DNA of 64,000 nucleotides, from assembly GCA_030704615.1 (NCBI GenBank), contig CM060733.1, positions 5,828,001 through 5,892,000 on the forward strand, read 5' to 3'. A program made the translations under genes and the position numbers. Positions 17,124-59,033 of the stretch are shown piece by piece. Every line of letters starts with the position of its first letter. The stretch's first letter is position 1. The notes beneath the pieces are model-generated. The model made no database searches. It saw only the letters and a list, made by a program, of their open reading frames with translations, and was not told the origin of the DNA. Origin of the DNA: Takakia lepidozioides (taxonomy: Eukaryota > Plantae > Bryophyta).

Positions 17124-17623
17124 NNNNNNNNNNNNNNNNNNNNNNNNNNNNNNNNNNNNNNNNNNNNNNNNNNNNNNNNNNNNNNNNNNNNNNNNNNNNN
17201 NNNNNNNNNNNNNNNNNNNNNNNNNNNNNNNNNNNNNNNNNNNNNNNNNNNNNNNNNNNNNNNNNNNNNNNNNNNNNNNNNNNNNNNNNNNNNNNNNNNN
17301 NNNNNNNNNNNNNNNNNNNNNNNNNNNNNNNNNNNNNNNNNNNNNNNNNNNNNNNNNNNNNNNNNNNNNNNNNNNNNNNNNNNNNNNNNNNNNNNNNNNN
17401 NNNNNNNNNNNNNNNNNNNNNNNNNNNNNNNNNNNNNNNNNNNNNNNNNNNNNNNNNNNNNNNNNNNNNNNNNNNNNNNNNNNNNNNNNNNNNNNNNNNN
17501 NNNNNNNNNNNNNNNNNNNNNNNNNNNNNNNNNNNNNNNNNNNNNNNNNNNNNNNNNNNNNNNNNNNNNNNNNNNNNNNNNNNNNNNNNNNNNNNNNNNN
17601 NNNNNNNNNNNNNNNNNNNNNNN
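17124..17623. other. Assembly gap (500 N)
   Basis: Run of N. Confidence 1.
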
Positions 17624-19166: not shown

Positions 19167-19867
19167 ATCAGGATTAGATCTTGCTTGGGCGGGCTTCTAT
19201 TCTTCCCCTCCATCTCTGTACTATTTTCATTACCTTGTACTTGTAGTTGCCAAAGCCTCTCTTGGTGGAGGCCAGTCAGTCCGGGGTTTTGGGCTGGGAT
19301 ATTCTGCAGGATCAGCATTGCAGCTGGATTTTGGTGTGGGGGTGTTGATGTTTTGATTTCTTGTGTTTGGATCCCCCCCAACACCTGCATGCTTGACTGT
19401 GCGCCATGTTGGTTTTGTGTGGGCGCTTGCTTTCATAGGGATTAGGCCGGATTTGATCACCGGTCAATCCTAGAGTATGCTGTCGGTGGTGAGGCTGGAG
19501 TGATGACCAGCAAGACCACCAGTGTTTCTTCTATGGTGAGGCTGGGTTGATGACCAGCCAACCATAGGAGTTCTTGCGGTGGATGCAGGTGCAGGTGCCC
19601 TGAGCCATTGGGATATGACCCTTAGACTGCAACAGGTGCCCACCCGTGTCACTATTAGATTAGTACTAGAGCCTTATAGTGTCACGTGGAGGAGGTGCAC
19701 ATTGTGAGTGTCATTACGGAGTTACCCAAGGGTTTTGAGGGGAGTACGGCTACAAGCAGTGACAGTGAGAGTGGGTCACAAGACGAGGTATTCGGTTCAG
19801 ACCACCTTCACCGCCACCCTCAACTACTGTAGAGTCAGACACAGACTCGGAGGCTTCATCAACAGGT

Positions 19868-21703: not shown

Positions 21704-22635
21704 TGGAAGGTGTAGTGGCAGAGGGATCCTCGGATTTGAGGGTCAAGACTGCCACGGCAGCGCCCTGGCAAGCTGCAGCTGCCAGGTTGACGGAGCTGCC
21801 AGCTAGGCCAGCCTTTGAGCGCGCCATGGTGACACCTGGAGTTGTCTTGTTAGACAACCAGGGAGGCATTTTCACTTTGAGTGGACCGGCAGGCAAGAAG
21901 TACCGGCCACTGCGGGTCTTGTTGGACTCAGGAGCTCAGCCACTGATGTTGGGCAGAGCTGCTATTGCAGGTTTGGGCCTCATGGAGGCGGATATGGAGC
22001 CTTGTCCTTTCCAGATACAGACATCTCTGGGAGGATCAGAGCAGGCTCGCGGCATGACACGGCATCAGTTGGCTATTAGACTGCAGCCGGATCATCCTGT
22101 AGATGGCTCAGTGATGCGAGCCAAGGCCATTGTGACAGACGCGGTCTCTTACGATGTCCTCGTTGGTGGGGCAGTGTTATACCCCATGGGCTTCACCCTG
22201 GATTTCTGGGAGGAGTCAGCATCCTACAGGCCTGGATGGCAGTCAGGGGATGGTCGCCGTGCACAGCTCCCTGTGACATTCATTGGGGGTATTGCAGCTG
22301 CTCAGCGGGGCAAGATGCCAACACTAGCCGCCTTCACAGCTGCAGTTAGCTGGCCTGGAGAGTTGCTGGAAGGCAATGCCCATGCAGAGGATGTGCCACC
22401 TCCAGCAGAGCAGGATGACATGCATGGTACGGCGGAGTTGCCTGCCATGGTTGCTCACACTCCGTTGTGGGGTACGAGCAAGGATTTGCAGCACGCTGCT
22501 GATGGACGGGTGCAACAAGCTTGGGTAGAAGCTTTTGTACCGTCAGGAGAGGAGGAGAGTGCGGTGATTGCACCAGGGCCACCTCAGTTGTCGCCATTGG
22601 ACACCACACCTCTTGTGTGGCAGCGACCGGATGAA
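21703..22635 (+). CDS. Retroviral-type aspartic protease and linker
   Basis: VLLDSGAQ active site and YDVLVGG C-terminal motif. Confidence 0.85.
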
Positions 22636-23600
22636 GGCATATGCCTTCTGGACTTATTTGGCGGGATCAGCACTGGATTGGCTGCAGTGCTGCAGGCAGG
22701 TGTACGAGTTCGACGTTACCTGTATGTGGAGAGGGATGAGACTGCACGACGCGTCTCACTGCGCCATGTTGCTCAGATGGTGCAGCAGCACCCTGAGTTG
22801 TTGCCGGTGTCTGCAGTTCGTGGATATCAGCAGGCCTTGCCAGCAGACATTGCGTTGCTGGGGGCGCAGGATTTGGAGCGGGTTGGCTCCATTGATCTGG
22901 TAGTGGCAGGTTGGCCCTGCCAAGGGCATTCATCAGCCGGGCATGGCAATGGATTGCGAGACTCGAGGACGGGTCTGTTTTGGGAGATGGTGCGGATTTT
23001 GCGCCACTTGCAGCTTCATCAGGCTGTATCTCCGGCATACATCTTGGAGAATGTGCCACTGATGGGTGATTCTCGGGCCAGGGTGATGGCCAGTGTGCAT
23101 CAAGTCCGGTCGTGGCTTGGGTCAGCAGTATTGCTGGATGCAGCTGCAGTGGGGTCACGGGCTCATCGTCCACGACTATGGTGGACTAACTTGATGCCAC
23201 CCGCACTGCTCAAGCGTGCATTTGATGGGGTGCAGCGGCCAGCACACCTCACCGTGGATGGCATTTTGGACACAGGAAGGCAGTCTCAACGTGTGAGACA
23301 CGATGACCGTTCGCCTTTGGCAGTGGTCAACAGGGTGGGTCAACCACGAGCAGCATTACCTACACTGCTCAGCTTCCCAGGATCCCATGCTTTTCGGGAT
23401 GGTGGACCTGGCCTCCTGTGGGATGCTCAGTTGCAGCAGTTAGTGGAGCCTAATGCCGACGAGCGAGAGCGGGCTATGGGGTTTTCCACTGGGACCACGG
23501 CGGTGCCTTCCTTTCTGAGGCATCACGTCGTCAGGTGTTGGGGCAAGCAATGGATCTCAATTGCTTGACCTGGATTGTCAGCTTGGCTATGGCTGAGCAA
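22636..23600 (+). CDS. C5 cytosine DNA methyltransferase domain (DNMT3-like) inside the polyprotein
   Basis: Motif I LLDLFGGISTG, II YVERDE, IV AGWPCQGHS (catalytic PC at 22915-22920), VI ILENV, VIII AHRPRLWW, IX ERERAMGF, X LGQAMD (after a 1-nt frameshift at ~23512). Confidence 0.92.
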
Positions 23601-23861
23601 CGTAGAGTGCGGAGTGCACTTCCCTTGATGGTCTCTCTGCCTACCGAGACGGTACAGGCAGCGAGTGGGGGCGAGCCGGTGAGGACCACGAGGTGTAGAC
23701 ATCCATGGCACATGTGGGAGGTGCTCGAGGTTCAGAGGGAGTTGGCAGCGAAGGCAGCTGTGATGGATGAGGAGGTTCTCAATGATGAGATGATGGGGCA
23801 GGATGAGGCCTTGTCATTGACTGAGCAGGAAGGGGGTACTGCTCAAGAGGTTGCAGCATAG

Positions 23862-26800
23862 CAACCACGGGACGCGTCCTCTACCTCTAAGCCCACTGGA
23901 CTTAAGGTTGCAGTTACGGAGGACAATTGGGAGCCTGATATTGGACCCATTGTCACCGGAGGAGAGAGACGACGTATACGGCGGTTCCTGAGGGCTTACA
24001 GGAATTGCTTTGCCTTCAGTTTGAAGGACTTGGGAGCACTGAAGGGTCAAGAGATCCGTATTGAGTTGGCCACTGACACGCCAATCTTTCGGAGACCCTA
24101 TAGATACAGTGACATGGAGAGGTCTTTGATTCAGATGAGGACTCAAGATCTCTGGGAGGCAGGTTTGGTGGAGCTCTCTGGTGGAGAGTATGCTTCAGCC
24201 ACAGTGATGCCAGCTAAGAAGGATGTCTATGGCAATTGGACGGAGAGACGTATGTGCGGTGATTACCGGCCTGTAAATCGTCAGACCAAGTCCGATAGGT
24301 ATGCCATGCCAACACCAGAGGAGATCTTTGATGCCATTGGGCATTCCAAGGTCTTTAGCACGTTGGATTTACGATCCGGATATCACCAGTTGCCGATCAA
24401 GGAGGCGGATAAGCAAAAGACGGCATTCTGGGGGATCAATGAGCACGGGAAGGATTGCCTATACCAGTGGCGGTTCTTACCATTTGGGCTTAAAAACGCT
24501 CCCGCTGAGTTTCAAAGAGTCATGGACAGGATTCTAGCAGGGGTGGAGTTTGCTCGGTGCTACATAGATGACATCATCATCTTTAGTGCTACGGTGGAGG
24601 AGCATGAGAGACACCTTCAGGGGGTATTTGAGCGCTTGAGGACGCACGGATTGAAGTTACATCCGGGCAAGTGCAAGTTTTTCCACAACCAGATTGAGTA
24701 TCTGGGTCACATGATATATCCTGGAGGATTGGGGGTACAGCAGACTAAGGTAGAGTCCATTGCACAGGTTCCACGCCCCACGGATGTGAGCCGAGTTCGA
24801 GCTTTCATGGGGTTAGCAAACTATTACAGACGGTTTGTTAAGGGATTTAGTGCCATTGCAAAGGCTCTAACCAAGCTGACCAAGGTGGACCAGGAGTGGC
24901 AGTGGGAAGATGAGCAAGAACAAGCTTTTCAAGAGCTCAAGGCGAGGTTGACCTCGGCGCCCATCTTGAGACGACCTATCAGGGGGCGTCTTTTCAGCTG
25001 CATACAGATTGGAGCATGCTGGGGCTTGGAGCGGTGCTCACACAGGTGGATGATGAGGGAAGAGAGTTCGTAGTGGCTTATGCTAGCCGCTCGAACAATG
25101 CTGCAGAGTCTAAGTATAGCTCATATGAGGGAGAATGCTTAGCTGCAGTGTGGGCCGTGGCACACTTCAGGTGCTATCTATACGGCAATCTCTTCACCCT
25201 TGTCACGGATCACCAACCACTCAAGTGGTTGATGGAGTCAGACAAGCTTACGGGGAAGCTTGCACGGTGGGCACTCATCCTTCAAGAGTATGACTTTCAG
25301 GTGGTGCATCGACCGGGTTTGGTCAATCGAAATGCAGATGGGTTGAGTCGCAATCCATGCACGAGCCAGCAGGATGACACTGGAGCTCGGTGGCATGGTG
25401 AGACGGACGAGGAGATGGTGCCCGGATGGCATGCATCTGCATTTCTGTGTATCTTGGCAGCGGAAGGCCAGGTTGGACCTACAACAGGGATGACTGTAGA
25501 TCAAGTGTCTGAGGACCCTGAGGCCAGCAATGAGCAGGGTGGCGCCAAAGATATACATGAGGATTCAGTTGTGTTGGACTACCTCCGCAGTGGAGACACG
25601 GCAGCCATTATGACTGCCAAGGAGAGGGATCGGATCCTACAACGAGCCAAGAGGTTCAGGTGGGAGGGGACACACCTGCTCCGAGTGTGGGAGGATGGTC
25701 GAGTGAGGATTGTGCCTCACCCAACACAGCGGGCACGGTTAGTGCGGCATGCCCATGAGGAGTTGGGGCATTTTGGGGTGCGACGCACTCATAGTCTACT
25801 ACAGGGGCAGTATTGGTGGCGTGGTATGCACACAGAGGTACAACACTTTGTGGCTAGGTGCATGGTGTGTGACAGGGTGCGTGCTTCATTCAACGCCCCT
25901 ACTCCACAATTGCACCCTCTTCCGATCATGGGATTGGGCTACAGGTGGAGTCTTGACTTCGCAGGGCCGTTGCCACTGACCATGCGCCACAACAAGTACG
26001 TGTTGGTGATGGTGGAGCACTTCTCCAAGTGGATTGAATTGGTTCCATTGCCTGATAAGGCTAGTGAGGGAGCTGCGTATGCATTCCTGGATTGTGTGCT
26101 TAGCCGATTCGGTGCTCCAGCTGAGGTACTCACGGACCAAGGGAGAGAGTTCTTGGGGGAGTTTCAGGCTTTGTGTGACAAGGCCTTGATAGACCACCGC
26201 ACCACTTCTCGGGATCATCCTGAAGCCGATGGCTTGGCAGAGAGAGTTGTTCAGACAGTAAAGAGGGGTTTGCGCAAGTATGGCTTGCAGAAGGGACACC
26301 TAGGAGATTGGGACCTTCAGTTACCCTGGTTAGCCATGGGCTACAGGTTCAGCAAGCAAGCATCACTTGCCTCCTTCTCACCATACTTTCTTCTCTTTGG
26401 CCGAGAGCCGGATTTGCCTACATCCATTCGCAGAGAAGCTGCTACAGTTCTTAACCTTGACGATCCGGACGTGTGGGCACGTGCATGTGAGCAGCGTGCA
26501 GAGTTGTTCAAGAGAGTCATGCCTATGGCTTTCGAGAACCTTGCCATTGCACAACACCGTGATACGTTGAGGTATGCTACCATACGTGGTGGGGGCTATC
26601 GTCCTGGGGTTCGGAGATTCAACCCTGGTGACTATGTCTATCTGCAGCAGACTGCTCCTACGACCCTGGATGTGACTGCAGGACGTGTTATTTTGAGGGT
26701 TCGAGAGGTCTTGCCCTCAGGCGTCTTGGTCTTGGAGGGTCGGGATGGCATCACTTGGAAGGACCATGTGCGTAATTGTGCGCCATGTCACCTTCCGAAT

Positions 26801-26995
26801 GTCGATGGCAGGATTGACCCAAACCTGGCAGTGGTATCTGCAGGTTTGAGGTGCATGTTGTGTGGGTCTGCTAAAGGGGCAGCCACCATGCTGGTATGTG
26901 ATCGGTGCTCTAGAGGTTGGCATATGGGATGCTTGACTCCACCTCTTGAGATGGTTCCGGATGGAGATTGGTTATGTCCACATTGCATTGGATAG
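23862..26995 (+). CDS. pol: RT-RNase H-integrase-PHD finger (one frameshift at ~24990)
   Basis: LPFGLKNAP and YIDD RT, TDWS RNase H, HHCC and D-D-E integrase (SLDFAG, TDQG, AERV), C-terminal C4HC3 PHD at 26852-26986. Confidence 0.95.
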
Positions 26996-27785: not shown

Positions 27786-29427
27786 CATTACCTGTTGGGC
27801 AAGAAGTTTATGTTCTATGTGGATCACCAGGCTCTGATATACCTGGTAAATAAACCTCTGATAAGCGGAAGAATAGCAAGATGGTTGATAATCTTGCACG
27901 AGTTTGAGTTCGAGGTTGTTTACAAGCCTGGGAGACTGCATCTTGTGGCGGATCACTTGTCACGGTTATCAACAGGAGAACCAGCCATAGGAATAGATGA
28001 TCAATTACCAGATGCGAGTCTATTTGCAGTGGAGGTGCAGGGAAGTGCAGATGAATGGTTAGATTGGCAGTGGCCAATCAGATACTACCTTGCTCATGGT
28101 CAGTGCCCACCTAGTTATGGTAAGGAGCAGAGGAAGAGAATCGCTATCAAAGCTGTACCTTATACTATGGTAGGAAGCAGAATGTATAAGCTAGGACCTG
28201 ATGGAGTACTAAAACGATGCTTGTACCACCATGAAGTAAATAAAGTTTTGGAGGAAGTTCATAAAAGAGTGGCTGGAGGTCATTTTGGAGAAGAGACTAC
28301 CAGTAGGAAGATACTACATGCAGGTTACTGGTGGCCTACTTTGTTCAAAGATGTGCACAAGTATTGTCAGAGTTGTGATGAATGTCAGAGGCTGGGACCT
28401 TTGCAGAGATCTGGGAAAATGTCTTTGCATCCTACAATGCCTACGGAACCATTTCAGAAATGGGGACTAGACTTTGTTGGACCAATTAACCCACCAGCCA
28501 AGAATACACGGAACAGGTACATAATTACAGCCACTGATTATACTACGAAGTGGGTGGAAGCTAAAGCTTTGAGGGACAACACAGCCAAGTCCACAGCAAG
28601 GTTCATGTACGATAACATACTTACACGATTTGGCTGTCCCTTAGAATTTATCAGTGATCAAGGAAGGTCACTTCATGAATGAGACCATTGAGTTGTTGAC
28701 TAAAGAGTTCATGATTGTGCATAGAAAAAGTACAACATATTACCCACAGGGTAATGGGCAGGCAAAGGCTACCAACAAAATACTATGTACTATCTTGGCT
28801 AAGATAGTCAATGCAAACAGAACGGATTGGGATACAAAGCTGCTGACAGCTTTGTGGTCATACAGGACTTCATATAAAGTCACCACTAAGTATACACCAT
28901 TCCAATTAGTTTATGGTATGGAAGCCTTACTTCCAGTGGAATTCCTGTTACCTACCATGAGAACGGAGTGGGGAAAGAGAATGGAATTGCAAGATTCCAT
29001 TAAAGTCAGGAAACATGAATTATATCATGTGGAAGAAGTACGTGCTGATGCAGCTGATAATATGACCAGAATTCAGATGAAGAGAAAGGAACAGTTTGAT
29101 GAAGGCAAGTTAAAGACTTTTAAGACGGGGGATTTGGTTCTATGGTTGCAGAAGAAAGGAAAGATTAAAGCTTCTAAGCTTAAATCACCATGGAAAGGAC
29201 CTTATGTCATACAAAAGATGTATGATAACAACATCGCGATGTTACAAACCATTAACAAAGAAATGCTGGGAAGAGTCAATGCCAATAAGTTAAAGGGATA
29301 CAGGGGTATCCATGACAAACCCTTGCAGCATGACTTGCATGTTGAAATGCAAGAGCAATCGCGGGCTGCACCAGTGTTACCAACGGAGTATGGAGCACTT
29401 GTCGCTAGGCCAAGCATATATGACTAG
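27786..29427 (+). pseudogene. pol: RNase H C-terminus and integrase (frameshifted)
   Basis: YVDHQAL...RIARW; H...GGHF...CDEC; KWGLDFVGP, SDQG, W.GPY. Confidence 0.92.
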
Positions 29428-29439
29428 GGCGGGCAAAAC

Positions 29440-29655
29440 AAGCGTGACACAGCCTATCACAGCCCATCAAGGTGAAACACAGCCCATCACAGCCCATCAC
29501 GACGTGACACAGCCTATCACAGCCCAGCACGGCGCAACACAGCCTATCACAACCTACCACAGCGTGTCACAGCCTATCACAGCTTACCATAGTGCATCAC
29601 AGCCTATCACAGCGTACCACAGTATGACACAGCCTGTCACAGCTCAACACAGCCT
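29440..29655. repeat. 30-bp tandem repeat (ACACAGCCTATCACAGC... units)
   Basis: About 7 units, translating as QPITAxH repeats. Confidence 0.9.
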
Positions 29656-30128
29656 ACTAGGATTACACGATCCATAGAATCAGTGACAGGTGGGCGCACA
29701 ATAACTTCAGAAAATGGCTGACGGAAGAAAAGACGGAAACCAGTTTAAAAATAGACACGTGGAAGTCAGGGTGCGACACACAGCCGAGAAGGAAGTGCAA
29801 GAACAGGTGTCATAAAGAAAGAGGACAAGAACGGCCGTCAAAATGGATGAAAGGCGGGCCCATTAATGAATACGGAAAAAGGGGAACGGAACAAGCGGCA
29901 AGTACAGAAAAGCGAAATTCTTGCCACATGTGTGATCCTAGTGGACTATCCAGCAGGGAAAGTCCACTAAAGAAAATGAAATCTAAAATCAAGTCACAGT
30001 GGTTACAGCCAATAGAAAGCCAGAGAAATGATCAAGAAATTGGAGGGAAATTAAGCGCAAGAGGCGGCGTCGTTCTGAGTAACGGGCGTCTCGACAGGAC
30101 AGACCATCAATGCTATAGCTTGAAAACT

Positions 30129-33214: not shown

Positions 33215-34124
33215 TACACAACACGTCACATCCAACACAGCCCGTCACAGTCGTCACAGCCGACACAGCCAACACAGCCCGTCACAGTCGTCACAGCCAA
33301 CACAGCCAACACAGCCCGTCACAGTTGTCACAGCCGACACAGCCAACACAGCCCGTCACAGCCGACACAGCCACACAGCCAGTCACAGCCCGACACAGCC
33401 AAACACAGTCGCACAGCCAATCACAGCCCGTCACAGTTTCACACAGCCAGTCACAGCTTGACACAGCTGTCACGATCATAGGGAACGGAGAGCAGGACAG
33501 GGAACGACTGTGGGGAACAACACCTTGCAAATGGAACATGTTAGTTCACGGACGACGGTTAGTGAGGGAAACGGTTAGAGCCACGGGTAGGAAGATAAAG
33601 GGAGAAGCAAGGACTGAGTAGGGGGCTTTTTGGGGAGAGGATTCTGGGAAGCACGTCAAGAGAGAGAGAGGATCGGGTGGAGAGTAAGAACGGAAGCAAA
33701 GATGGAGAGCACGGTGAAGGAGGAGAGATGATTAGTAGATGCTTGTTATATGAAAAACTGTAGTGATATTGTAGAGCAGATTAGAGACACAATGGCTTCG
33801 GCCTGATACCTGATAAATCATAATCTGATACTTATACGATACAACCACACTGTGTAGAGAGATCTGAGTGAAGTTGTGGAATGAATGGATGGGTTGATGG
33901 AATCCGATAAATTGATGAAGCAAACTGATACTTAATTATCAATGGTAAGGTAGCTAACATGAATGCCAAAAGGGAAACAAAGAGGAAACACCCCCATGAT
34001 ACACTAGCTGTAGGTCATGACTGATTGTTCTGCGCGGGCTGAGTACTTAGAGATTTCCAACTCTTCTATCTTGGAGTTTCCGCCTTGGATAGCGAAGGGA
34101 TGGGTGAGTAAAAGCCGCGCGACA
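33215..34124 (+). repeat. 3' LTR with (CACAGCC)-rich tandem array at 33227-33475
   Basis: Follows the PPT and ends in CA. Confidence 0.7.
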
Positions 34125-34480: not shown

Positions 34481-35312
34481 GAAGAAGGTGCCCTCACCAC
34501 ATTGTCCTCTACCTTGTGTCATGACCCATTGCGGATTAGACTGACCATGAACCCAAGAAGACCTCTTGTGCGTGCTGCTTGTATCTCTAGTTAGGTAATG
34601 TGGGATTGGTTCGTAAGAACCACCACAGTGCAGCTGAGCGGGCAGAGATTAAAATATGGGTTGCTAAGACCAAGCTGATTCCCCCAAGAACCTTGTGATC
34701 ATCAGGATGAATACCAAATCATGGTACAAAGGGGAGCCAAGAGCCCACATTTGCACATAATGCGCCCTTGACGCCATAAACGCTTGCAACAACAGGACAT
34801 GGGCCTCGATTTGGTCTTCGTCCTTCTCGCATCACTTGCTCGTCTCTCTCTCAAGCCTCCATCCCTCTCCCAACACTTGGACAAATTCAGGCAAAGGACA
34901 AAGTTACTCTTCCACCCTTAGATCATTTTACATCCGACGATTAGAACAATCTCTACGAGCCACACAAGCCCTAAAATACATTAAAATATTCCACGTCATG
35001 AGCCATGTGGAGCACTTATAAAAATTCCATTTTTGAATAGGGTGTGCAATGAATGCCTAGTTGTTAAGAGTCGTTCTCTAGTGCTTAAAACCACTTGTAA
35101 TTGTTGTTTAAAAAAAAAAACAATTTACGTAATTGAATTAAATCGCCACGAATATTGTGCCGACTGCGGAGTCATTGATGTAACTTCTATCCGCCATTAG
35201 AAATGTGAATTTATCCGTTACGACTGTGCAGTAGTAACAAACATCTCAAAGTTGTTCCCTCAGTGGTTTTGGACATGCAGTCGATTCGGAAAAGACACGA
35301 ATGCTTCTAGTG
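34125..35312. repeat. 1.19-kb segmental duplicate (copy A) of 41964-43153: 5' part of PPR pseudogene, upstream region and CACTA-like end
   Basis: Near-identical to 41964-43153. Both end ...GAATGCTTCTAGTG (revcomp CACTAG). Confidence 0.92.
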
Positions 35313-35850
35313 CTGTGAGGGCCTGTGACGGGCTGCGCCGGTGGCCTTGGGGGTTGTGATGGGCTGTGAGGGGCTGTGCCGGTGGCCTTTTGGGGCTGTG
35401 AGGGGGTGTGACAGTCTGTGCCCGTGGCCTTTGGGGCTGTGATGGGCTGTGAGGGGCTGTGACAGGCCGTGCCTGAGGCCTTTGGAGCTGTGACAGGCTG
35501 TGAGGGGCTGTGACAGGCTGTGCCCAGTGGCCTGTGGGCTGTGACCCCTGTGACCTGTGTCGGGCTGTGACAGGCTGTGCCCTGTGGCCTATGGGCTGTG
35601 AGGGGCTGTGATAGGCTGTGGCCTTTGGGGCTGTGACCCTGTGACCTTTGTAGGGCTGTGACAGGCTATGCCTGTGGCCTTTGGGGTTGTGATGGGCTGT
35701 GACAGGCTGTGACATGTGGTCTTTGGGGCTGTGACCTGTGTAGGGCTGTGATAGGCTGTGGCCTGTGAGTTGTGTGGGCCTGTGCTGGTCTGTGGTGGCC
35801 CGTGTTGACCTGTGGACGGCCTATGCTGACTCGTGGAGGCACTGGTGGAC
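35313..35850. repeat. GGCTGTGA (revcomp TCACAGCC) tandem array
   Basis: Dozens of degenerate units. Confidence 0.9.
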
Positions 35851-38160: not shown

Positions 38161-38654
38161 AGTTCTGATCCTCATAATGCAAGACTTCAGTGAGTTCCAC
38201 GGAATAGACCATCTACCCATGGAGGTTTCTTGTAGTTATTGATCCACAGGGAATCATAGATAAATCTTGTGCTTGAAATTTGGCCCTCTAGGATGAATCT
38301 GGACCACACTCTATCCCTGCTCCTTCAGCTATCCATGCCCCTGCACAAATCATGCATTCATCCTTGCCTTGCTGCTAGTAGCTGATAATGACAACCTACA
38401 TTTGTTCTAGGAAACATCCAACTCAGCTTATCACACTAGTTCCTATGCTCAATTGCGTCTGCTACTCTCTGAAATGTAGCAGACATTCACCTTTTTGCCT
38501 CGGTTGTCCCATCATTGACTTGGGGCAGAAAAGTATTCACTCCATAGCTTCTCCTCATGTCTGAATTCAGACATGAATAATTAGGGGCGATTCTGATAAC
38601 AGGGGACAACAAGGTGAAATTGAAGAAGGTGCCTTCATTAGCAGTCATTACACT

Positions 38655-46830: not shown

Positions 46831-47849
46831 TATAGGTCATTGAGGTACATAGAGAAGTCACTTGAAATAAAGTAAGTCATCTTTGAATTCGAAGTCGTTT
46901 GTAACATGTGGGTTGTCTCGAGATCGATTTAGTTGACTTCGTAGTGTCGTAGCAAATTGGTCGCTCTTCAGTGCTTCCTGAATCTCCTTTATGATCTCTG
47001 CATCGTCATAGGTGGACATAGATAACATATTCAATTGGAGATTTGCTGGTTTCAAGATGATGGATTTCTGTTGGTCGAAAGTTGCCTCCCATTTTTTCAG
47101 CGCAAGATACGATCGTCGAGAAACATCATCGGGTGTCTCTTGAAGATGTCCGGGGCGATAGGTAATAACAAAATCAAACCTTGCTAGTGACATACCCCAT
47201 CTTGCTTGACGTCGATTCAAAACATGAGCACTCATAAAATATTCGAGGTTTATGTGATCGGTGTAGACAGTGATCTGATGTTTAGCTCCCTTCAATAGAT
47301 AACGCCAATCCTCAAAAACATCGATGATCGCTAGAAGTTCTTTGACATGGATTTCACAATTGATCTCTGTAGCGAAAAATTTGCGAGAACGAAAACCAAC
47401 GGTCATCCGTACTGTATTGAGAGAGTATAGCGCCAAGTGCAAAGTTCGATGCATCTGCTTCCAAAAAGAATGGTTTAGATGGGACTGCATGTTCCAGTAT
47501 TGGAGCCGTTGTGAATGCTTACTTCAGCCTTTCAAATGCCTGGTCAGCCTTCTCGTCCCATACAAATTTGTCCTTCCCTGTGAGTCGTGTCAATGGTGCA
47601 GCAATTTTGGAGTAGTCCTTGATGAAGATTCTATAAATCCCAGAAAACATTGTACATCTCGGACCGAAGTTGGTTTAATCCACTCGATGATGGTTTGTAT
47701 TTTCTTCTGATCCATAAACACGCCTTTGTCGGAAATAATGTAGCCCAGAAATTCGACCTCAGATTGAAGGAAAAAACATTTTTCCAACTTGACATATAGT
47801 CCTCTTTCTCTTAATTTATTAAGGACAAGGCGTACATGGCAGCCATGTT
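46831..47849 (-). mobile_element. pol: Tcn1-like chromovirus pol fragment (RT C-terminus, RNase H), degenerate
   Basis: LYVKLEKC...VEFLGYIIS...VRDVQCFLGF; KELLAII..FEDWRYLL.GAKHQITVYTDH..NRRQARW. Continues at 58158. Confidence 0.85.
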
Positions 47850-49351
47850 TGTAGTGTGAATGCACGGGAGTGACATTACATTTTGGCTTCACCGTTAAGA
47901 CCCTGCATCACTATAATGGGAGGGCCCTGATACCAACTGCAAGAGGGATATATCCCTCCATACAGGTAATTTTGTGGGCATACTGTACTCATGCGTTGCC
48001 AAAATAAAAATGGCTAAGTCGTGACCATGCATTTTTCATCCATGCGATGAACGTTTTCGTCACTGATGCTCAACCTAAAAATCGCGAGGAAAGAAGAACG
48101 AAGAGGAAGATGACGGGCGATTCGTAGCAGCTGCCGCGAGCTGTGGTGTTGACAGGGCAGTCTGTGTTGAGAGGTTGTACCTGCGCTGTGGGACTTCGCT
48201 TGGTTTAGATGGCAGCATTAAGTGCCTCTGCTTGGTATTCTGTGTAAAGGGAAGCGGTGCCGTCTTTCTCGTTGTGATGATCAATTCATGGAGATAGGAG
48301 CATGTAAGGAGAGCGGCGCACCACCGCTGCCGCCACTGTCTTGAAGATGACAGTTATGGGCAGATGAGCAAGCAAGGAGAACGGCCACCTGCTAGAAGCA
48401 CAAGGAAGAGAATCTGAGCACAATCAATGGAGGCGATAAGGCATGTGGAGTGCTGGCTGGATGGCAACACAGGTTATCTGTAATCAGGCTTCTAGCTGCT
48501 TTTTGTCTTCTTGCTATAGGTCCATTTCAGTTCTTAAAGAGCTACATGCATAGAAGAATAGAGCAATTTAGTTGGCAAACCACAGGATGCTCCATAGGAT
48601 GATGAGGAGACATCATGGCATGATAAACTCTGGAATCAAGACAAGGAGAAAAGGTTGTGGTGGCTGCTGACAGATGATGGTGAGGTGCCATCTGGGCAGG
48701 CTGACCCACCGCTTCACTGGAGGATAAAAACAGATAAGTTGGTAGACTGTGGGCTTCTTCTTTTGGGCGGACTTAGAAATCGCTTTTGGTAGATTTAGGA
48801 CTGCCCTTTTTGTTGAAAGGAAAGGGTGGAGACATGTGATAGAGGAAAGGTTTTTGGAAATGGAATGGAGACTCTGGACTTCAAACCAGAACATGGAAGG
48901 AATGGATACACCTGCTGTCGTAGTGTCAGTAAGAAAAATGAGTGAAGAGAGAGAGAGAGAGACTGTTGTCACAGAAAACAGAATGGTCACTGTTGTCTTC
49001 ATTCTTGTTCTTGTTTCAGTGTTGTAAACCTGCACACAATGTTGCTGGGGGGTAGTGATACACTGGACCCAATGTAGATATAGCTTGTTTGCTTGGAGAG
49101 ATAATTGAGGGTTAGCTGGAACTGTATGAAAACACAAAAGGGATAAGGTGTGATTTCAGCATTGTATCAGGATATGAACGACTTAAGCCCTTTTGTTGAA
49201 AGGAAAAGAGAGATGTTGGGGTATTCAGGTTGAATCTGAAGAAGGGATGAGAAAGAGAACGCTCCTTTCCTTTGCCCTAATACTTCAACAGGGACGAGTA
49301 GGAGGAGTACAGATTTAGGATTAACCAGAAGGGGATTCACGCCCCTTCTTT
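47850..49351 (+). repeat. 5' LTR (lacks a 710-bp block and the terminal CACACTACA)
   Basis: Alignment by eye to 55942-58157. Confidence 0.93.
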
Positions 49352-49363
49352 TGGTATCAGAGC
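49352..49363 (+). promoter_or_regulatory. PBS tRNA-iMet TGGTATCAGAGC
   Basis: Canonical 12-mer. Confidence 0.92.
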
Positions 49364-49803
49364 TGATGTTAAATCTTGATTTCTACTAGCTAGGGATCTT
49401 GACTGGTATTGGATGGTTTGATGGCAGGAAGAGACCACACACTGATTCCTGATGAACCAAGCATTGGAGATGTGCTGATTTGCTTCAGCAGACGCACACC
49501 AAATGCACACGCAGACCCTTGTTTGTACTTCTTCAACCCTGCTTGGAGAATAACGAATGGTGATTTATGTCTTAGAGTGATACATACTGGTGGAAGAACA
49601 ACCATAGCACTTTGGATAAGAGAGTTAGGAAGGTGGGTGAAGATAAATACCATGGCACGAGAGGTGACATGGGGAGGTAGAGTAGAGATGTTGCGAAATG
49701 GTCAGTGGGAGTGGTATAGAGGTCAACATTAAGGGAGTTGCAGGAAAATTAGAGTCAGAATTAGGTGTTGAAACAGTTTGAACTTCGACTAGAGTATAGA
49801 AGA

Positions 49804-52800
49804 ATGACCAGTCCAACTAGCATAGATGTGCCTTATCATGGGAGGAATAGTGAGGATGTGAATGACTGGCTGGAAAGAATTCAGATGGAGGCAGATGTAA
49901 GGGATTTAAATGAGGACAAAACTTTCAAAGTAGCAAGGCTCAACCTGAGAGCCAAGGCTGATGAATGGTACCGCAAACAAAACCCTAGGCCAGACAACTG
50001 GGAAGATTTCAGGGCAGCCATTTCAGCCAAGTTTGGTATCATTGACTTGGCAGAAATCAGGCTAAGAATGGATACCATCAAACAGGAGAGTAGACAAAAG
50101 GTTCAAACATACTTCGATAGGTTGAACCGGTTATTTATAAGAAGTGGGGCGTCTGATTTGGAACAGAGGCGTAGATTTGCAGCAGGTTTGAGACCAGAAA
50201 TAGCAAGAGTAATGCTGGGCAGGCGCTTCCTTGATGTAGAGGAAGCACTTGACACAGCCATTGAGATTGAAAGGGGCCTGGGAAAGTTAGGGGAAATACC
50301 TCTAGAGCCATTGGAAGGAGATGATACAGATGAGTCAGTTGTGTTTGTTAACCCTGTGGACAGAAGACTTGATCAGCTGAACACTACCCTACAGAAGTAC
50401 TTTGATAGGGGACCAGTCATAGGAGAAAGCTCGGGATCTAGAACACCACCTCGTGTTCGCCTTTGTAATGTTTGTCACAAAGAAGGTCACATAGCTGCAT
50501 ATTGTCCTGAAGGAAGAACCCCAGCTAAGTGTGACAAATGTCACCGGTTCGGGCATTCCACGGAAATGTGTGGTGTGAGATGCAACTTTTGCAAGCTACT
50601 CGGGCATACGGAGAGTGAGTGCAGTAGAAAACTCGACCAGACTATGAGGGGAACTCCGGGAACTAACTTTGTAGATGTGTTCTATGATGATGAGGATGAT
50701 GTACTCGCAGAAATGACAAATCTGATGTCACAAAATAGTATCAATGAAGTCAGACTTCCAAGGACACGTATCCCTGTCCAGAGTCCGATTGTTGAACCTA
50801 CAGGGTCACCAGAAAGGAATAGTGAGAGCAGTGAACAGCCAAGCAGGACCAAGGGTGAAATCTACCCAAAGAACAATTTCAAGACTGCCATAGAAGGAGG
50901 TACGAAATCTAGAATCTTGAACCACTTCTACAAAGGGAGAATCTCGTTGTCTCCCATGGATCTAATCATGACTGTGCCCGGAGAGCTAGACAAATTGAAA
51001 GGGCTGGTCAAAGTGGTGGAAAGGGCAATGGTACAACAAAGGGAGACAACTCACAGTGTAGAAGTTGTGAGGGATGTACCAAGACCTTTGTACTCAGCAC
51101 ACGCTGAACCCACAATCTCATATGCTTATACTGGTAAAGTAAAGGCACTTCATGTGATGATTACAATGGGAGATTACCAAGTATTAGGCCAGATTGACAC
51201 AGGTGCCATGTTCTCAGTAATATCCGCGAGTACTGTAAGGGATCTTGGTCTGATGGGATCTGTCATTACTAGTAAGGATGTAAATTACAGAGTAGCCTCT
51301 GGTGCTCTTGAGACTGCAATGGGCAGACTTGAGGACATCAAGGTCAAAGTAGGAGAGCTGACCAATCGTTTGTCCTTTATGGTGGTGAACACGGATACAT
51401 ATCACATGCTGCTGGGATTAGACTTTCTCAAAAAGTTTGGTGCTGTAGTTGATACCGAAGCTGAAACAATTCGAGTGCGCTATGGGCCAGGAAAGGATTT
51501 TGCTCACTTCCCTTTGCACACCATAAATTATAATGAGCCTGCAGTTACCAAAACGGCCTACCATAGAGGGGTCGAGAGCAGAGTGCGGTATGCAGGCAGT
51601 ACGTCTGCAGGTAATGTCTTAACCCTGACGTCAGATGAACAGTACTTAGGCTTGTGGGAGAAGAAAAGAAAACCAGAGGAAGAATATGAGGACACGGAGG
51701 AATCATCCTCAGGTTCTGACACCTCTCAATATGATAAAGGTGAGGAGATGGGAGGCTCTGAGGAGAGTAAGGAGGTAGAAACAGCACTGAGGGATGTTGA
51801 GGAAATAATAGACGATGTCAACCTAGGGGAGGACTTGTTCGAGGACCAAGGGATGTCTGAACTCCTTCAGGAAGAGACCCATAAAAGCATGGCTGCTGCC
51901 ATAATACAGGAAGCTTACCAGAAAGCTTGGAATGGTGAACTAGGGAACAACAACCTAGAAATAGAGGATGACTTCCATGATTGGAATCAGGTTGTCACAC
52001 AAGAGGAAGGACAGAGAATGGCTAACTCTGTGAGCCAGGTGGAGGGAAAGAGTTGGGAACCCAGTCAAAAGGAAGAAATGGAGAGTCGTTGGAGAAGTCT
52101 GAAATCCAGACTGCACATCAACCCAGAACTGGCCCCAGAACATAGGATAGAGCTGGAGCAAGAGCTGAAAGCAAGCCAGGAATGTTTTGCTCTTAGCAAG
52201 GCTGACTTGGGATACTGCAATGAGGTGGAACACACAATTGACACACAAGGTTTTCCCCCTTGCAGAAGTCGTCCCAGCCGCCTATCAGAGTGGGAGGAAA
52301 ACGAGGTCCAAGGACAAATTGAGACTTTGATCTCACAAGGCAAGATGAGAGAGAGTAGCTCATAATGGTCGTGTCCAGTTACCCTTCCACCAAAAAAGGA
52401 TGGATCCAAGCGGTTTTGTGGTGATTTTAGGCCAGTAAACCGTTTGACCAGAAGGGACTCTTACCCTATGCCATTAATTCAAGATGTTTTAAACCAGTTG
52501 GGGAAAGCCAAGTGGTTTTCTGCGCTGGATTTACAATCTGGTTTTTGGCAGATCAAAATGGACGACCGAGACATAAGCAAAACAACAGTGATCACAAAGA
52601 AGGGATTGTATGATGGCTAGTCATGCCATTCGGGCTAAAAAATGCCACTGCTACCTTTCAGAGAACAATGAATAGGGTACTCAAGGAAGAAATCAAAGAT
52701 TGCGCTAAAGTTTTTGTAGATGACGTCAATATCCATAGCAAGGACTGGGGAGATCACGTGGGACATATAAAGAGAGTACTGAGCAAGGTTAGAAAGGCCA

Positions 52801-55800
52801 ATCTTAGGCTCAATCCGGACAAGTGTTACTTTGCCAACTTACAGTTGGTATTCCTTGGGCATGTGATCTCTGAAGAGGGAACGTGGCCTGATCCAGATAA
52901 GATAGCTGTTATTGAAAGGTTTCCCTTGCCCAAAAACCACACTGCTCTCAAAAGCTACTTAGGCATGACAGGGTACTATAGGCCCTATGTCAAAGGATAT
53001 GCTGGAGTGGCAGTACCCTTGTTCACTCTAACCAAGAAGGATGTGAAGTTTATCTGGAGTGCAGAGGCACAAAACGCCTTTTCTGCCTTACAGGTGAAGT
53101 TGGTAACTGCTCCCATCCTGGCAAGACCAGATTTCTCAAGACCGTTCGTCTTGGATGTTGACTGGTCCATCAAAGGAGTAGGGGCAGTCTTGTCACAAAA
53201 GGAGTATAAAAAGGAGAGGGTCATTGCATACGCCAGTAAGGTACTATCTGATGCTCAGCGCAAATATCACCCTATGGAGGGTGAATGCTATGCCTTGGTA
53301 TGGGGAGTATTACACTTTAGGCAGTACCTGTATGGAACCCCTTTTGTAATCAGGACTGATCACAAACCGCTGGAGTGGTTGGCAACGGTAAGTGACGCAT
53401 ATGGACGCAGGGGTAGATGGATCATGATGTTACAAGATTTTGAGTTTAAAATTGTTCACAGAGCGGGTGCTAGGCATGCTAACGTAGATGCACTAAGCAG
53501 GTATCCAGTGGGACCAGCTGAGGAAACCGAGGAAATCGAGGTATACTCTACTTCTCTGTACAGTCAGAAAAGAGAAGGGAGAAAGAGGGATGGAGCCTAT
53601 CTTCTTAAGCTAGCTTGGGATAGGGGTGCCATCAATGCTTCGTTATTTCAATTTAAGGAGGGTAAGGAGGAGTGAGAGAAGAAGCTCATAGGCAAGTAGG
53701 GTATAGCAGTGAAAAAGGGGAGATGATTTGCAAGAGAGAAGAGTACTATGCATGTGTATGGGGCCTTTGGCACTTCAAGAAAATACTGTTGGGAAGTCAT
53801 TTTTCTTTGGAAACAGATCTAGATCCATATTGGTGGCTGTACTCGGAGCACCACATAGGCATAGACTTACTTGGTGACTTTTCATTTGAGTTCGTTCCGG
53901 GCATAGTAAGATCTTCCACAGGTGGAATGTTGACCAAGGCTCATGGCATATTGAAGGGAGAACTGAAACCAGGCATAATGCCAGATGGAGAAGAAAAGAG
54001 GGTGACTTTTGCTGCACAGACTTTTGCTACAAAAAAAAAAACAAGGAAAGGGTATTGATCAATCAAGCTCTGTCAATCTGGTAAGGGAGGGTATTTGGAA
54101 GGATAAGGGTGCAGGAAGGATAGAGGCTCCTGCAATCAGCAACAAGGAAAGGGAGCATCTGATGCCCTCTTGTCCCACCATCCATGTGATTACCCGAGGA
54201 TCTCGTGCTCGTGATAAGGAGCTAAGCGAGGTACATCCAGCCTGTGACCTTGTGGAAGAGCGATCGAACAATGAAAAAGGAAGCTTGCAAGAGACACCAT
54301 TCCTTCAACACTTGACAAGCACTCCAACAACAAGAAGAACGCGGGTGACTTCCTCATCAGAATGCCCAGCCAGGGAAAACATGGGGGGTGAGTGTTCCAC
54401 CAAGACGTTTTGTTCTTCAGACAATGATGGAACAAGTGGTTCAGAACAAGACACTTCTTCTTGCAACAAGATTGATGAAGGGGACTGGGTACCATGGACC
54501 GCACCCACCAAAGCTACTCAGATGTCATTATTACGTGAGGCTGAAAGATGGGGGAAAAAGTCTCTCATCAGCTCTGACCATCATACAGCAGCTGTTAAGG
54601 AGGAAAGGCAACCTGATGTGCTTGATGATGTGGAAGTCATGCACCTCTTATGTTTTGGAGAAGTCAATGACTACCTGACAAAAGAGGAGAGCAAGAGAGC
54701 CAAGAGGCGGGCAAGGCAGTACTCCTATCTCAAAGGTGAGGTCTACTTTGATGGAAGGGTAGTTCCACCAAGAACTGATAGAGGGGCAATAATCACTGAA
54801 GTACATGAAGCCACTGGCCACTTTGGAGTCAGAAGAACACAAGAGGAGATATGCCGACGTTATTCTGGCATGATAGAACAAAACTCATCAGGCAAGTACT
54901 CAAGGGCTGTGGTAAATGTCAGATGGCCAAACAAAACGGAGTGTTGCGCTCAGGTAGCTCAAAACTTCACAGCATTCCAGTAGTGGATCTGTTTTTCAGA
55001 GTTGCAATTGACACGGCAGGACCATTACCTATAACCAGCAGGGGCAATCAGTACTTTCTGGTGGCAATCGATCACTTCTCAAAATGGATAGAAGCTGCAC
55101 CAGTGGCAGATCATACAGCAGCCCTTGCTGCCCGCTTTCTTGAGGAAGAAGTAATTGACAGGTATAGCTGCCCACATACGTTGCTCACTGACAATGGCAC
55201 AGAGTGGGGAGGTGAGTTTGAAGATACATGCCGCGAATACGGTATAAAGAGGGAGCATAGCGCCCCCTACTGGCCTCAGTGTAACGGTATGGTGGAAAGG
55301 GTCATTAAGTCTCTCAAACAGAGCATCACCACCCTAGGAGTTGGAAACGACACTGAGTGGGATCAGAATCTCTATAAAGCCCTGTTTGGTTACAGAATGG
55401 GTGTCCATGCTTCCACTGGATTCTCACCTTTTCAGGTACTTACTGGTAGAATTCCAAGGCTGGGAATTGACAACAGGTTGCATTTTCTTACAACACCAGT
55501 AAATTCTGATGGATCTGTAGCAGAGGTCACACTTATGATGCAGCAGAAAATCCAGCTTCTCACAGAGATGAAGGCAAAGCTGCGAAAAAGTGTGAAGAAA
55601 GGGCAACGTCAATAGGCAAGAGATTATGAAAGGAGGCATCAAACTGGGCATACCTACTGCAAGTTGATGGAAAACAGCAAGGTTATGATGTTGAGGCCTG
55701 GAAAGAGATCTTCCATGACATCTCCATGGGAGGGACCTTATGACTTTTTGGGGTACAAAGATGCAGGAAACACCACAAGGACAGGGGAAGCTGCACGCAG

Positions 55801-55921
55801 ATGCAGGCTAAGAGATGGGGCAAACAATGAATGGGTAAGAAGTAGGAGGGACTTGAAACCCTTCATACCACCAGTGGGTGATCAGCCAGTGAAGGTGGTC
55901 AGTGAGGACCCTGACACTTAA
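49804..55921 (+). pseudogene. gag-pol: gag-PR-RT-RH-(RH')-INT polyprotein with a few stops and frameshifts
   Basis: Three CCHC knuckles, IDTGA protease, FVDD RT, VDWS RNase H, IDTAG/TDNG/VERV integrase, WEGPY. Confidence 0.93.
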
Positions 55922-55941
55922 AAAGGGAGACACACTACATA

Positions 55942-58157
55942 TGTAGTGTGAATGCACGGGAGTGACATTACATTTTGGCTTCACCGTTAAGACCCTGCAT
56001 CACTATAATGGGAGGGCCCTGATACCAACTGCAAGAGGGATATATCCCTCCATACAGGTAATTTTGTGGGCATACTGTACTCATGCGTTGCCAAAATAAA
56101 AATGGCTAAGTCGTGACCATGCATTTTTCATCCATGCGATGAACGTTTTCGTCACTGATGCTCAACCTAAAAATCGCGAGGAAAGAAGAACGAAGAGGAA
56201 GATGACGGACGATTCGTAGCAGCTGCCGCGAGCTGTGGTGTTGACAGGGCAGTCTGTGTTGAGAGGTTGTACCTGCGTTGTGGGACTTCGCTTGGTTTAG
56301 AGGGCAGCATTAAGTGCCTCTGCTTGGTATTCTGTGTAAAGGGAAGCGGTGCCGTCTTTCTCGTTGTGATGATCAATTCATGGAGATAGGAGCATGTAAG
56401 GAGAGCGGCGCACCACCGCTGCCGCCACTGTCTTGAAGATGACAGTTATGGGCAGATGATCAAGCAAGGAGAACGGCCACCTGCCAGAAGCACAAGGAAG
56501 AGAATCTGAGCACAATCAATGGAGGCGATAAGGCATGTGGAGTGCTGGCTGGATGGCAACACAAGTTATCTGTAATCAGGCTTCTAGCTGCTTTTTGTCT
56601 TCTTGCTATAGGTCCATTTCAGTTCTTAAAGAGCTACATGCATAGAAGAATAGAGCAATTTAGTTGGCAAACCACAGGATGCTCCATAGGATGATGAGGA
56701 GACATCATGGCATGATAAACTCTGGAATCAAGACAAGGAGAAAAGGTTGTGGTGGCTGCTGACAGGCGATGGTGAGGTGCCATCTTGGCAGGCTGACCCA
56801 CCGCTTCACTGGAGGATAAAAACAGATAAGTTGGTAGACTGTGGGCTTCTTCTTTTGGGCGGACTTAGAAATCGCTTTTGGTAGATTTAGGACTGCCCTT
56901 TTTGTTGAAAGGAAAGGGTGGAGACATGTGATAGAGGAAAGGTTTTTGGAAATGGAATGGAGACTCTGGACTTCAAACCAGAACATGGAAGGAATGGATA
57001 CACCTGCTGTCGTAGTGTCAGTAAGAAAAATGAGTGAAGAGAGAGAGAGAGAGACTGTTGTCACAGAAAACAGAATGGTCACTGTTGTCTTCATTCTTGT
57101 TCTTGTTTCAGTGTTGTAAACCTGCACACAATGCTGTTGGGGGGTAGTGATACACTGGACCCAATGTAGATATAGCTTGTTTGCTTGGAGAGATAATTGA
57201 GCTGGAACTGTATGAAAACACAAAAGGGATAAGGTGTGATTTCAGCATTGTATCAGGATATGAACGACTTAAGCCCTTTTGTTGAAAGGAAAAGAGAGAT
57301 GTTGGGGTATTCAGGTTGAATCTGAAGAAGGGATGAGAGCTGTTTTGGGAAATGGGATCTTTTAAAAGAAAAGGGTAGTGTGAAGGGTTGAGTATTGACA
57401 GAGAGAAGAGAGAGAGAGATAGAGAGACTGATGAAAGGGATGGTTTTGCCTTGTGAGACCAATGATGACTTCAAGGCTGGCTGCACTGGATGCCTGGCGG
57501 AGTGTGCATTTGCATTACGTGATAGATGGGCTGTATGTGAAGAAGTAAGGAGCCTGTAGACATAGACAGAGATAGAGAAACAGACGAGAAAAAGAAAAGA
57601 GAGAGAGAGAGAGAGCTGCTCAGCAAAAGGGGTTGATGGGGGGATGGCCAACTTGGAGAGATTGAGATGAAGAAAGCATGAATCCTGAAGGAAAACCAGT
57701 GCCCCTGCAGTTTATGAAGATCTGAGCTGTCTCCCTCTAAATATGTGTCACCATTACAAAAATGGGATTTCCGACATGTCACTGCTCAAAGGGGGTTCAC
57801 ATTAAGGGTCGTATTCACCGCTGCCATTGGGCTGCTTGCATCACAGAAAAGATCGCGCCAACACTGTTGGCGCAGTGAGCATAGGGCCAGGCTGTTGCAT
57901 AGAAGTAGAACCGAGGGCAAGAACAAACCAAAGACTCCTATCCATGTCTTCTCTTCCGCTGCGGCGTGGATGAGGATTCCGCAAACTCTGATCACGAACG
58001 AACCTGAGGGAAAAACCCATATAGCCTCATGACGATGGTTGGACAGAAAAGAGAACGCTCCTTTCCTTTGCCCTGATACTTCAACAGGGACGAGTAGGAG
58101 GAGTACAGATTTAGGATTAACCAGAAGGGGATTCACGCCCCTTCTTTTCACACTACA
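55942..58157 (+). repeat. 3' LTR, 2216 bp, TGTAGTGTG...CACACTACA
   Basis: Perfect terminal inverted repeats. Confidence 0.95.
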
Positions 58158-59033
58158 TGTTCTTCTTCATTCTGTAAAAATATCAAAATGTCGTCCAAAT
58201 AGATGACTACAAAGTCATCTAAAAATTCTCGAAAGATGTCATTCATCATATGCTGGAAAAATTGCTGGAGCATTCGTACGACCGAAAGGCATAACACTGT
58301 ATTCAAAATGTCCGTACCTTGTTCGATTTTTTTTTTTTTTTCTATTCGTCTCCTTCTTTTATCTGTACAAGGTTATAAGCTGTTCTCAAGTCAATTTTGG
58401 TGAAAATCTTTGTTCGTCCCAGCTGGTCGATAAGCCCCAAACTAGAGATACAAGACTAGACAAGAAGTCAAGGTCGGCGTGGCCGAATGCATGATGGGTA
58501 TACATGAATCAAGATGATCTTTATAACAATGGAGAAGAGTACAAGATACTGGAACTCGACTTGATTACTGGAGTGTTGGAAATTGGACTGGAGTACCAGA
58601 TACTGGAAACTGGACTAGAGTACTGGAAGTTGGACTGGAGTACTGGAACTGGAAACAAGAGTAGCTTGAACTTGTGTTGGTGAGACTGAAGAGTGTCTAG
58701 TCTCGCCTCCTATATATACTGGCTACTAGGAAGTTCCCTAAGAAGCTTCCCCAATGGAGGTTTCTTGATGGAGAAGTTTCTAAGGTTAAACAAAGGTTTC
58801 TTGGTGGAGAAGTTTCCTTAAACAAAGGAGAAGTTTCTTCCAAAGGAAGTTTCCTGAGCAGTTTTCAAGTTACTCTCGATAATTTGGTAAACTCCCAGTA
58901 ATTTGGTAACTAATGGTAACTCATGGTAGACCATGGTAAATTATGGTAAATTATGATAACTTCCGGTAACATGGTAACTTGGTAACTTCTGGTATTTACT
59001 CCTGATAAGTTTCTATGGGCTATGTCCGTGACA
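58158..59033 (-). mobile_element. Remainder of the Tcn1-like element: RT N-terminal part (58158-58440) fused by deletion to its 5' LTR (starts TGTCACGG at 59033)
   Basis: [13 protein letters not shown]..., [18 protein letters not shown]. The LTR has a TATA box and ACTGGA / GGTAA(C) repeat tracts. Confidence 0.82.

Follow-up and report, generated by a model that had tools for sequence, protein, structure and literature searches.

The window, by which we mean the whole stretch of 64,000 nucleotides analysed here, holds a whole Ty3/gypsy element at 47850-58157 on the forward strand, whose insertion split the reverse transcriptase (RT) of an older gypsy element running on the opposite strand (47590..47849, resuming beyond 58158). 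Working inwards from its left end, one copy of the target-site duplication (TSD; TGTT, 47846..47849, the 4-bp length being taken from relatives) is followed by the 5' LTR (47850..49351), which opens with TG (TGTAGTGTG, at 47850) and closes with a pyrimidine tract without a terminal CA (CCCCTTCTTT, ending at 49351). The primer-binding site (PBS; TGGTATCAGAGC, 49352..49363), of a type we take to be that of initiator tRNA-Met, abuts U5 with zero spacer. The coding part then comprises an open reading frame for gag and aspartic protease (49765..52365) with a stop before the RT; RT and RNase H (52366..53675) in two frames, with a break near 52612; a frameshifted region holding a degenerate partial RNase H repeat, a long spacer and the zinc-binding region of the integrase (53666..54983); and the DDE integrase core (D-D(34)-E, with a WPQC motif) together with its C-terminal part (54809..55921), the latter preceded by a stop at 55613-55615. 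All of these lie on the forward strand, and the order of Pfam matches—gag, protease, RT, RNase H, rve integrase—is that of gypsy elements.

At the right-hand side, the polypurine tract (PPT; AAAAAGGGAGA, 55920..55930) leads into a 9-mer that we call X (CACACTACA, 55931..55939), then a TA spacer between CA and TG (55940..55941) and the 3' LTR as far as the U5 pyrimidine tract (55942..58147). X and the sequence behind it form a perfect 20-bp palindrome directly after the PPT (CACACTACATATGTAGTGTG, 55931-55950). Beyond U5, one T (58148; also the first base of the PBS) and a second, identical X (58149-58157) complete the element ahead of the right TSD copy (TGTT, 58158..58161); the TA spacer is missing from both ends of the inserted element. 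We infer that T-X at 58148-58157 is the fossil of an end-to-end joint, and that the X behind the PPT is the outer half of the right integrase end, moved from its usual place. The three observations on which the initial annotation had built, namely a 5' LTR that meets the PBS without CA (49351/49352), a PPT followed by the palindrome, and element termini at 47850 and 58157 with a U5-T-X end, are all borne out in the sequence. The flanks (ATGTT and TGTTC) fit either a 4-bp TSD (TGTT) with an intact CA end or a 5-bp TSD with its last A lost, between which the interrupted host RT frame does not discriminate; the relatives described below give 4 bp.

The insertion is recent, since only 12 of 1497 aligned bases differ between the two LTRs, the 5' LTR otherwise lacking 710 bp of the 3' LTR (57338-58047) and having 6 extra bp. 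With its stops, frameshifts and 710-bp LTR deletion the window copy is defective; the DDE core of its integrase looks intact. Perfect palindromes of at least 20 bp are expected at 0.05-0.06 per window (60 shuffles), and the window has a second, unrelated one of 22 bp at 38555, so that it is the position of the post-PPT palindrome, not its length, that carries weight; chance identity of the post-PPT arm and the 3' terminus over nine bases has a probability of about 4e-6. Further perfect palindromes lie at 38555-38576 (the 22-bp example), at 405-422 (18 bp) and at 47943-47958 and 56035-56050 (16 bp each), the last two being one palindrome present within both LTRs. A role for the 20-bp palindrome as an RNA hairpin was also considered; it does fold (z -3.2), but we set this role aside because relatives keep just an 8-bp core.

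Other copies of the window's family were examined on contigs from four runs of two samples, in which the family is abundant. One contig (X5 record 25, depth 3500) spans 49326-49585, and so runs through the odd U5/PBS junction, differing by one base and by a 4-base insertion placed behind the PBS; it has 26 bases upstream of the PBS, which is under our 31-base bridging rule. A contig of depth 3300 matches 55895-55945 without a difference, and the second sample spans 55890-55960. For the window's own family, the odd 3' terminus (U5-T-X) is read from the window copy. Four X5 contigs carry the same PPT and palindrome at 55920 with unrelated sequence upstream, and are possibly other subfamilies or non-autonomous derivatives.

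An integrase-alignment search provided 82 more distant loci: the best 80 of 564 relatives in metagenome contigs, and 2 in IMG/VR. Their integrases are 48-54% identical to that of the window and their LTRs have zero nucleotide similarity to the window's LTRs, yet PPT-NNACA-TA-TGT (at most two substitutions from the search motif) is found in 76 of the 77 loci that reach the integrase C-terminus, the 77th stopping at a contig edge. The PBS is conserved in 29 loci, at element distance, and 28 of these have upstream sequence: none shows CA within the six bases before the PBS, and 27 end in TTT. The TSD is 4 bp long, exact in eight of ten distinct full elements and with one mismatch in the other two, an exact 5-bp TSD occurring in none. 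The proposal that the design is family-wide therefore holds for both odd junctions, which recur in family contigs, whereas the long palindrome does not generalise: the conserved core is ACA-TA-TGT with imperfect arms, and the perfect 20-bp form is specific to the window's family.

The window integrase and those of the relatives form one supported clade (FastTree 100, 22 rows), and in the integrase tree the WP-motif integrases make up a supported clade among unnamed proteins. The active-site loop of the lineage reads WPQCNG, with W replacing the usual H before PQ (window 54854-55612; P0001-P0004, P0209), and the 36 WP motifs among the fetched proteins all fall in one clade. D-D(34)-E spacing, tried as a lineage trait, was rejected, 80 other motifs having the same spacing. 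P0209 is a third, distant WP-motif integrase, for which no locus was found in IMG/VR; P0186 is a single 1772-aa polyprotein. The relatives may come from one host group. Three of their contigs (L007, L081, L082), two of them listed as viral in IMG/VR, have identical terminal repeats of 98-123 bases and are probably collapsed-LTR assemblies of a retrotransposon. By eye, the pyrimidine tract at the U5 end of relatives (e.g. L010, L042, L063) is nearly complementary to the PPT over some 11 bases including G-U pairs, which could pair the two RNA ends.

Because the arms around TA are imperfect mirrors in the relatives, the origin of the 3' terminus can be tested there. Our U5 anchor ended 12 bases short of the joint and is thus independent of it; a 3' copy of the anchor was present in 20 of 28 loci. 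Leaving out the eight loci without such a copy, one at a contig end (L007) and two duplicates (L015, L073) gave 17 elements, one of which (L003, PPT deleted) was counted for the joint only, so that 16 entered the comparison with X. All 17 read U5, T, 0-2 bases and an X-like 7-mer. This terminal 7-mer equals the element's own post-PPT X exactly in 12 of 16 cases and within one base in every case; compared with the inverted LTR start, X is the nearer match in 15 (the exception being L022), and compared with the PBS in all 16. X itself falls into classes (GGTTACA, GGTGACA, GGCTACA and the window's unrelated 9-mer) and the terminus follows the class. On the tree, kin share classes, with about two changes of class besides the window's 9-mer; because L021 and L050 appear to be recombinants, the independent changes number about three. 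Each of these two combines the integrase of one subfamily with the LTR of another, likely through recombination, and its X and 3' terminus match the subfamily of the LTR. A looser end finder matched the dinucleotide class in 36 of 37 distinct ends, a level reached in 0 of 20000 shuffles; it assumed GG and mis-called L076, and the counts we rely on are those of the joint-independent anchor. A clear 3' end is missing from L026, L029, L059 and L077 despite ample sequence.

The joint itself bears signs of having been made anew in each copy. Extra bases sit exactly between U5-T and X in eight of the 17 elements, and none is shorter (sign test, p 0.008); five elements gained T and two gained C, and the T run of L022 is longer. 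They vary among close relatives and are absent from the 5' LTR of the same element, and we conclude on these two grounds that the joint base arises per insertion. In six of the eight longer joints the added T lies beside a T run and could reflect slippage; the extra C is not so explained. Reverse transcriptases tend to add untemplated A and G, and the plus-strand T and C at the joint correspond to A and G at the minus-strand 3' end. Short indels are the mark of LTR-LTR junctions made by non-homologous end joining (NHEJ) in the accessible text on carrot eccDNA (PMC9324142), and NHEJ factors form the 2-LTR circles of HIV (PMC3148978, in part).

These observations support the reading put forward in the initial annotation, of ends joined and then cut at the centre of the junction: the last seven bases at the 3' end vary with the seven that follow the element's own PPT, and the joints carry bases added copy by copy. 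tRNA priming ends the right cDNA end at U5, and the sole reverse-transcribed X lies behind the PPT, so that each round of replication must carry X over from the left end to the right; as only the left cDNA end holds X under standard reverse transcription, the ends are probably joined every cycle. We regard this core claim, that the ends are joined and then cut, as highly probable. Our confidence is evenly divided on the fuller model, in which a Ty3/gypsy lineage with a split right integrase end has its linear cDNA joined into a 2-LTR circle that integrase then opens at CA|TA|TG, and likewise stands in the balance on whether it is the host that ligates the ends into a closed circle.

In this model the right end would be split between an inner half, at U5 beside the PBS, and an outer half behind the PPT, namely X with its terminal CA, and standard reverse transcription would yield a linear cDNA of the form X-TA-LTR ... 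LTR-T. Retroviral RNase H leaves the last A of the tRNA. Were the enzyme here to spare that base as well, the constant T at the joint would follow; our literature search found no supporting paper for the retained tRNA base. An untemplated purine, sometimes added by RT to the minus-strand 3' end, would give the extra T or C, and host end joining would close the circle. Integrase would then cut each strand after CA across TA, leaving two recessed CA-3'OH ends with 2-base TA 5' overhangs—a staggered 2-bp cut that would mimic the products of ordinary 3' processing—and strand transfer would generate the 4-bp TSD with loss of TA. Such a circle would also bear a look-alike CA-TA-TG behind the PPT, from which the inner pyrimidine tract might mark out the true joint; the inner arm, that is, may decide which CA-TA-TG is cut. 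Cut PPT-X sites number 0 among 70 true sites in the loci (a 71st match is not at a PPT). Read inwards, the purine fraction is 0.66 and 0.99 at the true ends and 0.06 on the PPT side; over positions 8-18, 4.6 of 11 bases agree with the left end, against 2.5 (n=21), a modest subterminal symmetry.

The joined molecule itself does not appear in the material searched: U5-T-X-TA-TG is absent from 34 ends in 723 kb of relatives' loci, neither the predicted-junction pattern nor the exact palindrome has a match in IMG/VR, the joined form is missing from the loose ends in family contigs among the matches listed, and the run contigs show neither a circle junction nor a cut PPT-X site, again among the matches listed. 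Our data cover inserted products only and, because assembled contigs drop rare forms, we treat the missing molecule as weak counter-evidence.

How else might X have reached the right-hand terminus? Reverse transcriptases can jump end-to-end between templates. RT might thus pass from the finished plus strand (U5-T) to the left-end minus-strand 3' end and copy X-TA-TG, giving a nicked circle within the particle that would undergo the same CA|TA|TG cut, have its nick repaired after insertion and make host ligase unnecessary. Such a jump yields the same products as ligation, it suits the tightness of the joints, which have 0-2 added bases and are free of resection in 16 of 17 elements, and the added T or C would be copies of untemplated A or G on the acceptor end. 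Ligation, however, should give tight joints too, since ends with damage would fail to integrate; the window's family offers no microhomology for a jump, and the sequences examined show neither nick nor flap. We consider the jump unlikely, if still the most serious competitor to ligation. Joining might instead be intermolecular, producing head-to-tail cDNA dimers or concatemers from which integrase excises monomers: the termini would be the same if the partners share one family, and tandem LTR-retrotransposon structures are common in plants according to the excerpted text of PMC11899658. Against this, none of the 34 ends continues into TATG, where uncut tandem joints are predicted, and in place of the foreign-subfamily termini also predicted, every correctly called end has the class of the X of its own element; we judge it decidedly improbable.

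Two further schemes fare worse still. Without any end joining, the 3' end could be a mis-copied tRNA primer, or the result of a template switch via the TGG common to PBS and X; the relatives' end (TGGTTACA) does resemble the PBS start (TGGTATCA), and Tf1 cDNA ends retain primer-derived single strands (PMC11042837, in part). Yet every one of the 16 termini is nearer to X than to the PBS, an extra T or C separates the T from GG, which a tRNA copy would leave adjoining, and the left end would still lose 9-11 bases; the window's own X, moreover, has nothing in common with the PBS past the T, so that the window family already largely refutes this very improbable explanation. Just as improbable, in our estimate, is a read-through RNA covering the entire 3' LTR, with X inherited from the parental 3' end via a non-standard minus-strand start. 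It would keep X and terminus alike within a family, but the PBS is kept in 29 loci and tRNA priming sets the right end at the PBS; nor does inheritance fit joint insertions that vary among close relatives and are missing from the element's own 5' LTR. That the layout is a private deletion, rearrangement or assembly error of a single copy, as the defects of the window copy might suggest, is refuted: both odd junctions occur in family contigs at depths of 3300-3500, with the second sample agreeing at the PPT, and distant relatives without LTR nucleotide similarity share the design, lacking CA before the PBS and carrying the post-PPT junction.

As to classification, the element has the domain order, the direct LTRs with tRNA PBS, PPT and TSD, and the DDE (rve) integrase of Ty3/gypsy (Metaviridae), and shares with the plant lineages of REXdb (in the accessible part of PMC6317226) the order gag-PR-RT-RH-IN, two LTRs, tRNA PBS, PPT, TG...CA outer ends and TSD. 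It differs from them in a 5' LTR without a CA end, in integrase tips placed head to head after the PPT and in 3'-terminal bases without a counterpart in the 5' LTR; the canonical LTR structure (identical ends, TG...CA, CA before the PBS) is found neither in the window's element nor in any of 28 relatives. The accessible REXdb table has no non-chromovirus row with both a Met PBS and a 4-bp TSD (PMC6317226). Phygy is described there with a tRNA-Trp PBS and an NCGN 4-bp TSD, whereas here the PBS is of Met type and neither the window's TSD nor any of ten relatives' TSDs is NCGN; Selgy (tRNA-Ala PBS, 4-bp TSD, about 5 kb) agrees in TSD length but not in PBS type or size, the internal part here being about 6.2 kb (both PMC6317226, in part). 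Unlike the chromoviruses Galadriel, Tcn1 and Chlamyvir, whose chromodomain is C-terminal, the window and the L007, L017 and L068 open reading frames, all of which reach a stop, have no Chromo match. It is thus by described PBS, TSD and chromodomain that the lineage is set apart from Phygy, Selgy and the chromoviruses. The additional archaeal-type RNase H of Tat (OTA) elements has no Pfam match here; a partial repeat in the window matches, weakly, the RT-type RNase H (E 2.6e-4), and relatives give no such match. This degenerate repeat occupies 53666-54058 (+), directly behind the true RNase H, with a long spacer to the integrase. DIRS and Ngaro elements have asymmetric or split ends, a proposed circular intermediate, a tyrosine recombinase and no regular TSD; the present element differs from them in its rve integrase, PBS, PPT and 4-bp TSD.

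The known systems nearest to the element in how it would work are the cleavage of PFV junctions and the copy-out/paste-in insertion sequences. In vitro, PFV integrase cleaves both strands of an LTR junction reading CA-AT-TG (PMC1180852, in part), and the CA-NN-TG junction, 2-base spacer and DDE integrase are common to both, the cut itself being a predicted one here. For HIV-1, 2-LTR circles have been proposed as an integration reserve (excerpts of PMC4372172). In PFV and HIV-1, as far as these sources go, each linear end comes with an attachment site, and use of the circle is optional and contested, whereas here it would be obligatory, because the right end is without CA until the ends are joined. 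In insertion sequences of the IS3, IS30 and IS256 type, the junction of a circle likewise has a short spacer and is nicked at both ends by a DDE enzyme, and integration leaves a TSD; these are, however, bacterial DNA transposons with a transposase-made junction, a flank-derived spacer and no reverse transcription (PMC7780238, in part). The lineage would also be a natural case built as in the 2-LTR precursor model of Panganiban and Temin (1984), with integration from an LTR-LTR junction, a model since overturned for retroviruses in favour of linear precursors (PMC11054761, in part); plant work, in the text available, regards circles as non-integrating (PMC7197481). A literature search, with most subscription papers and Repbase-type notes outside its reach, returned no description of the split-end layout, which is also absent from the accessible portions of PMC11899658, PMC11042837 and PMC12789967.

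Taken together, the design is real and lineage-wide, and is best explained by integration from an end-to-end junction. We think it probable, although short of the confidence we place in joining and cutting as such, that this is an old plant lineage in which part of the right attachment site has come to lie behind the PPT and the 2-LTR junction is an obligatory substrate, that these are the first such LTR retroelements, and that every genomic copy contains a fossil joint. Whether 2-LTR circles are true integration precursors has been debated since 1984, the accepted view being that precursors are linear and circles by-products; if our reading is true, the lineage offers a natural system for testing such precursors, since its right-hand CA end is impossible without joining. 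Its integrase would then have evolved for internal junction cleavage, and the joint requirement would act as a check on complete reverse transcription and could link transposition to host end joining. LTR finders that require TG...CA on both LTRs would presumably mis-bound or miss such elements.

Elsewhere in the window, two other elements look ordinary at the single junction seen in each (CA-CT-PBS near 16836 on the reverse strand; PPT-CGAT-TG at 27256). The gypsy element at 19769-26995 (+) carries a C-5 cytosine DNA methylase domain upstream of the RT and a PHD finger after the integrase; its integrase is also D-D(34)-E, one of the 80 other motifs with this spacing, and its PPT/LTR junction at 27256 is ordinary-looking. 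A 500-base assembly gap lies at 17124-17623. Arrays of a CACAGCC-type repeat of 9-10 bases, in both orientations, occur beside nested gypsy pieces at 29411-29663, 33227-33410 and 35306-35801. Finally, 3853-5988 (-) holds a PPR gene whose highest identities (50-54%) are to clubmoss proteins, which weakly suggests a non-seed land plant as the probable host; the gene is built of repeat units of 303 bp and has an E motif.
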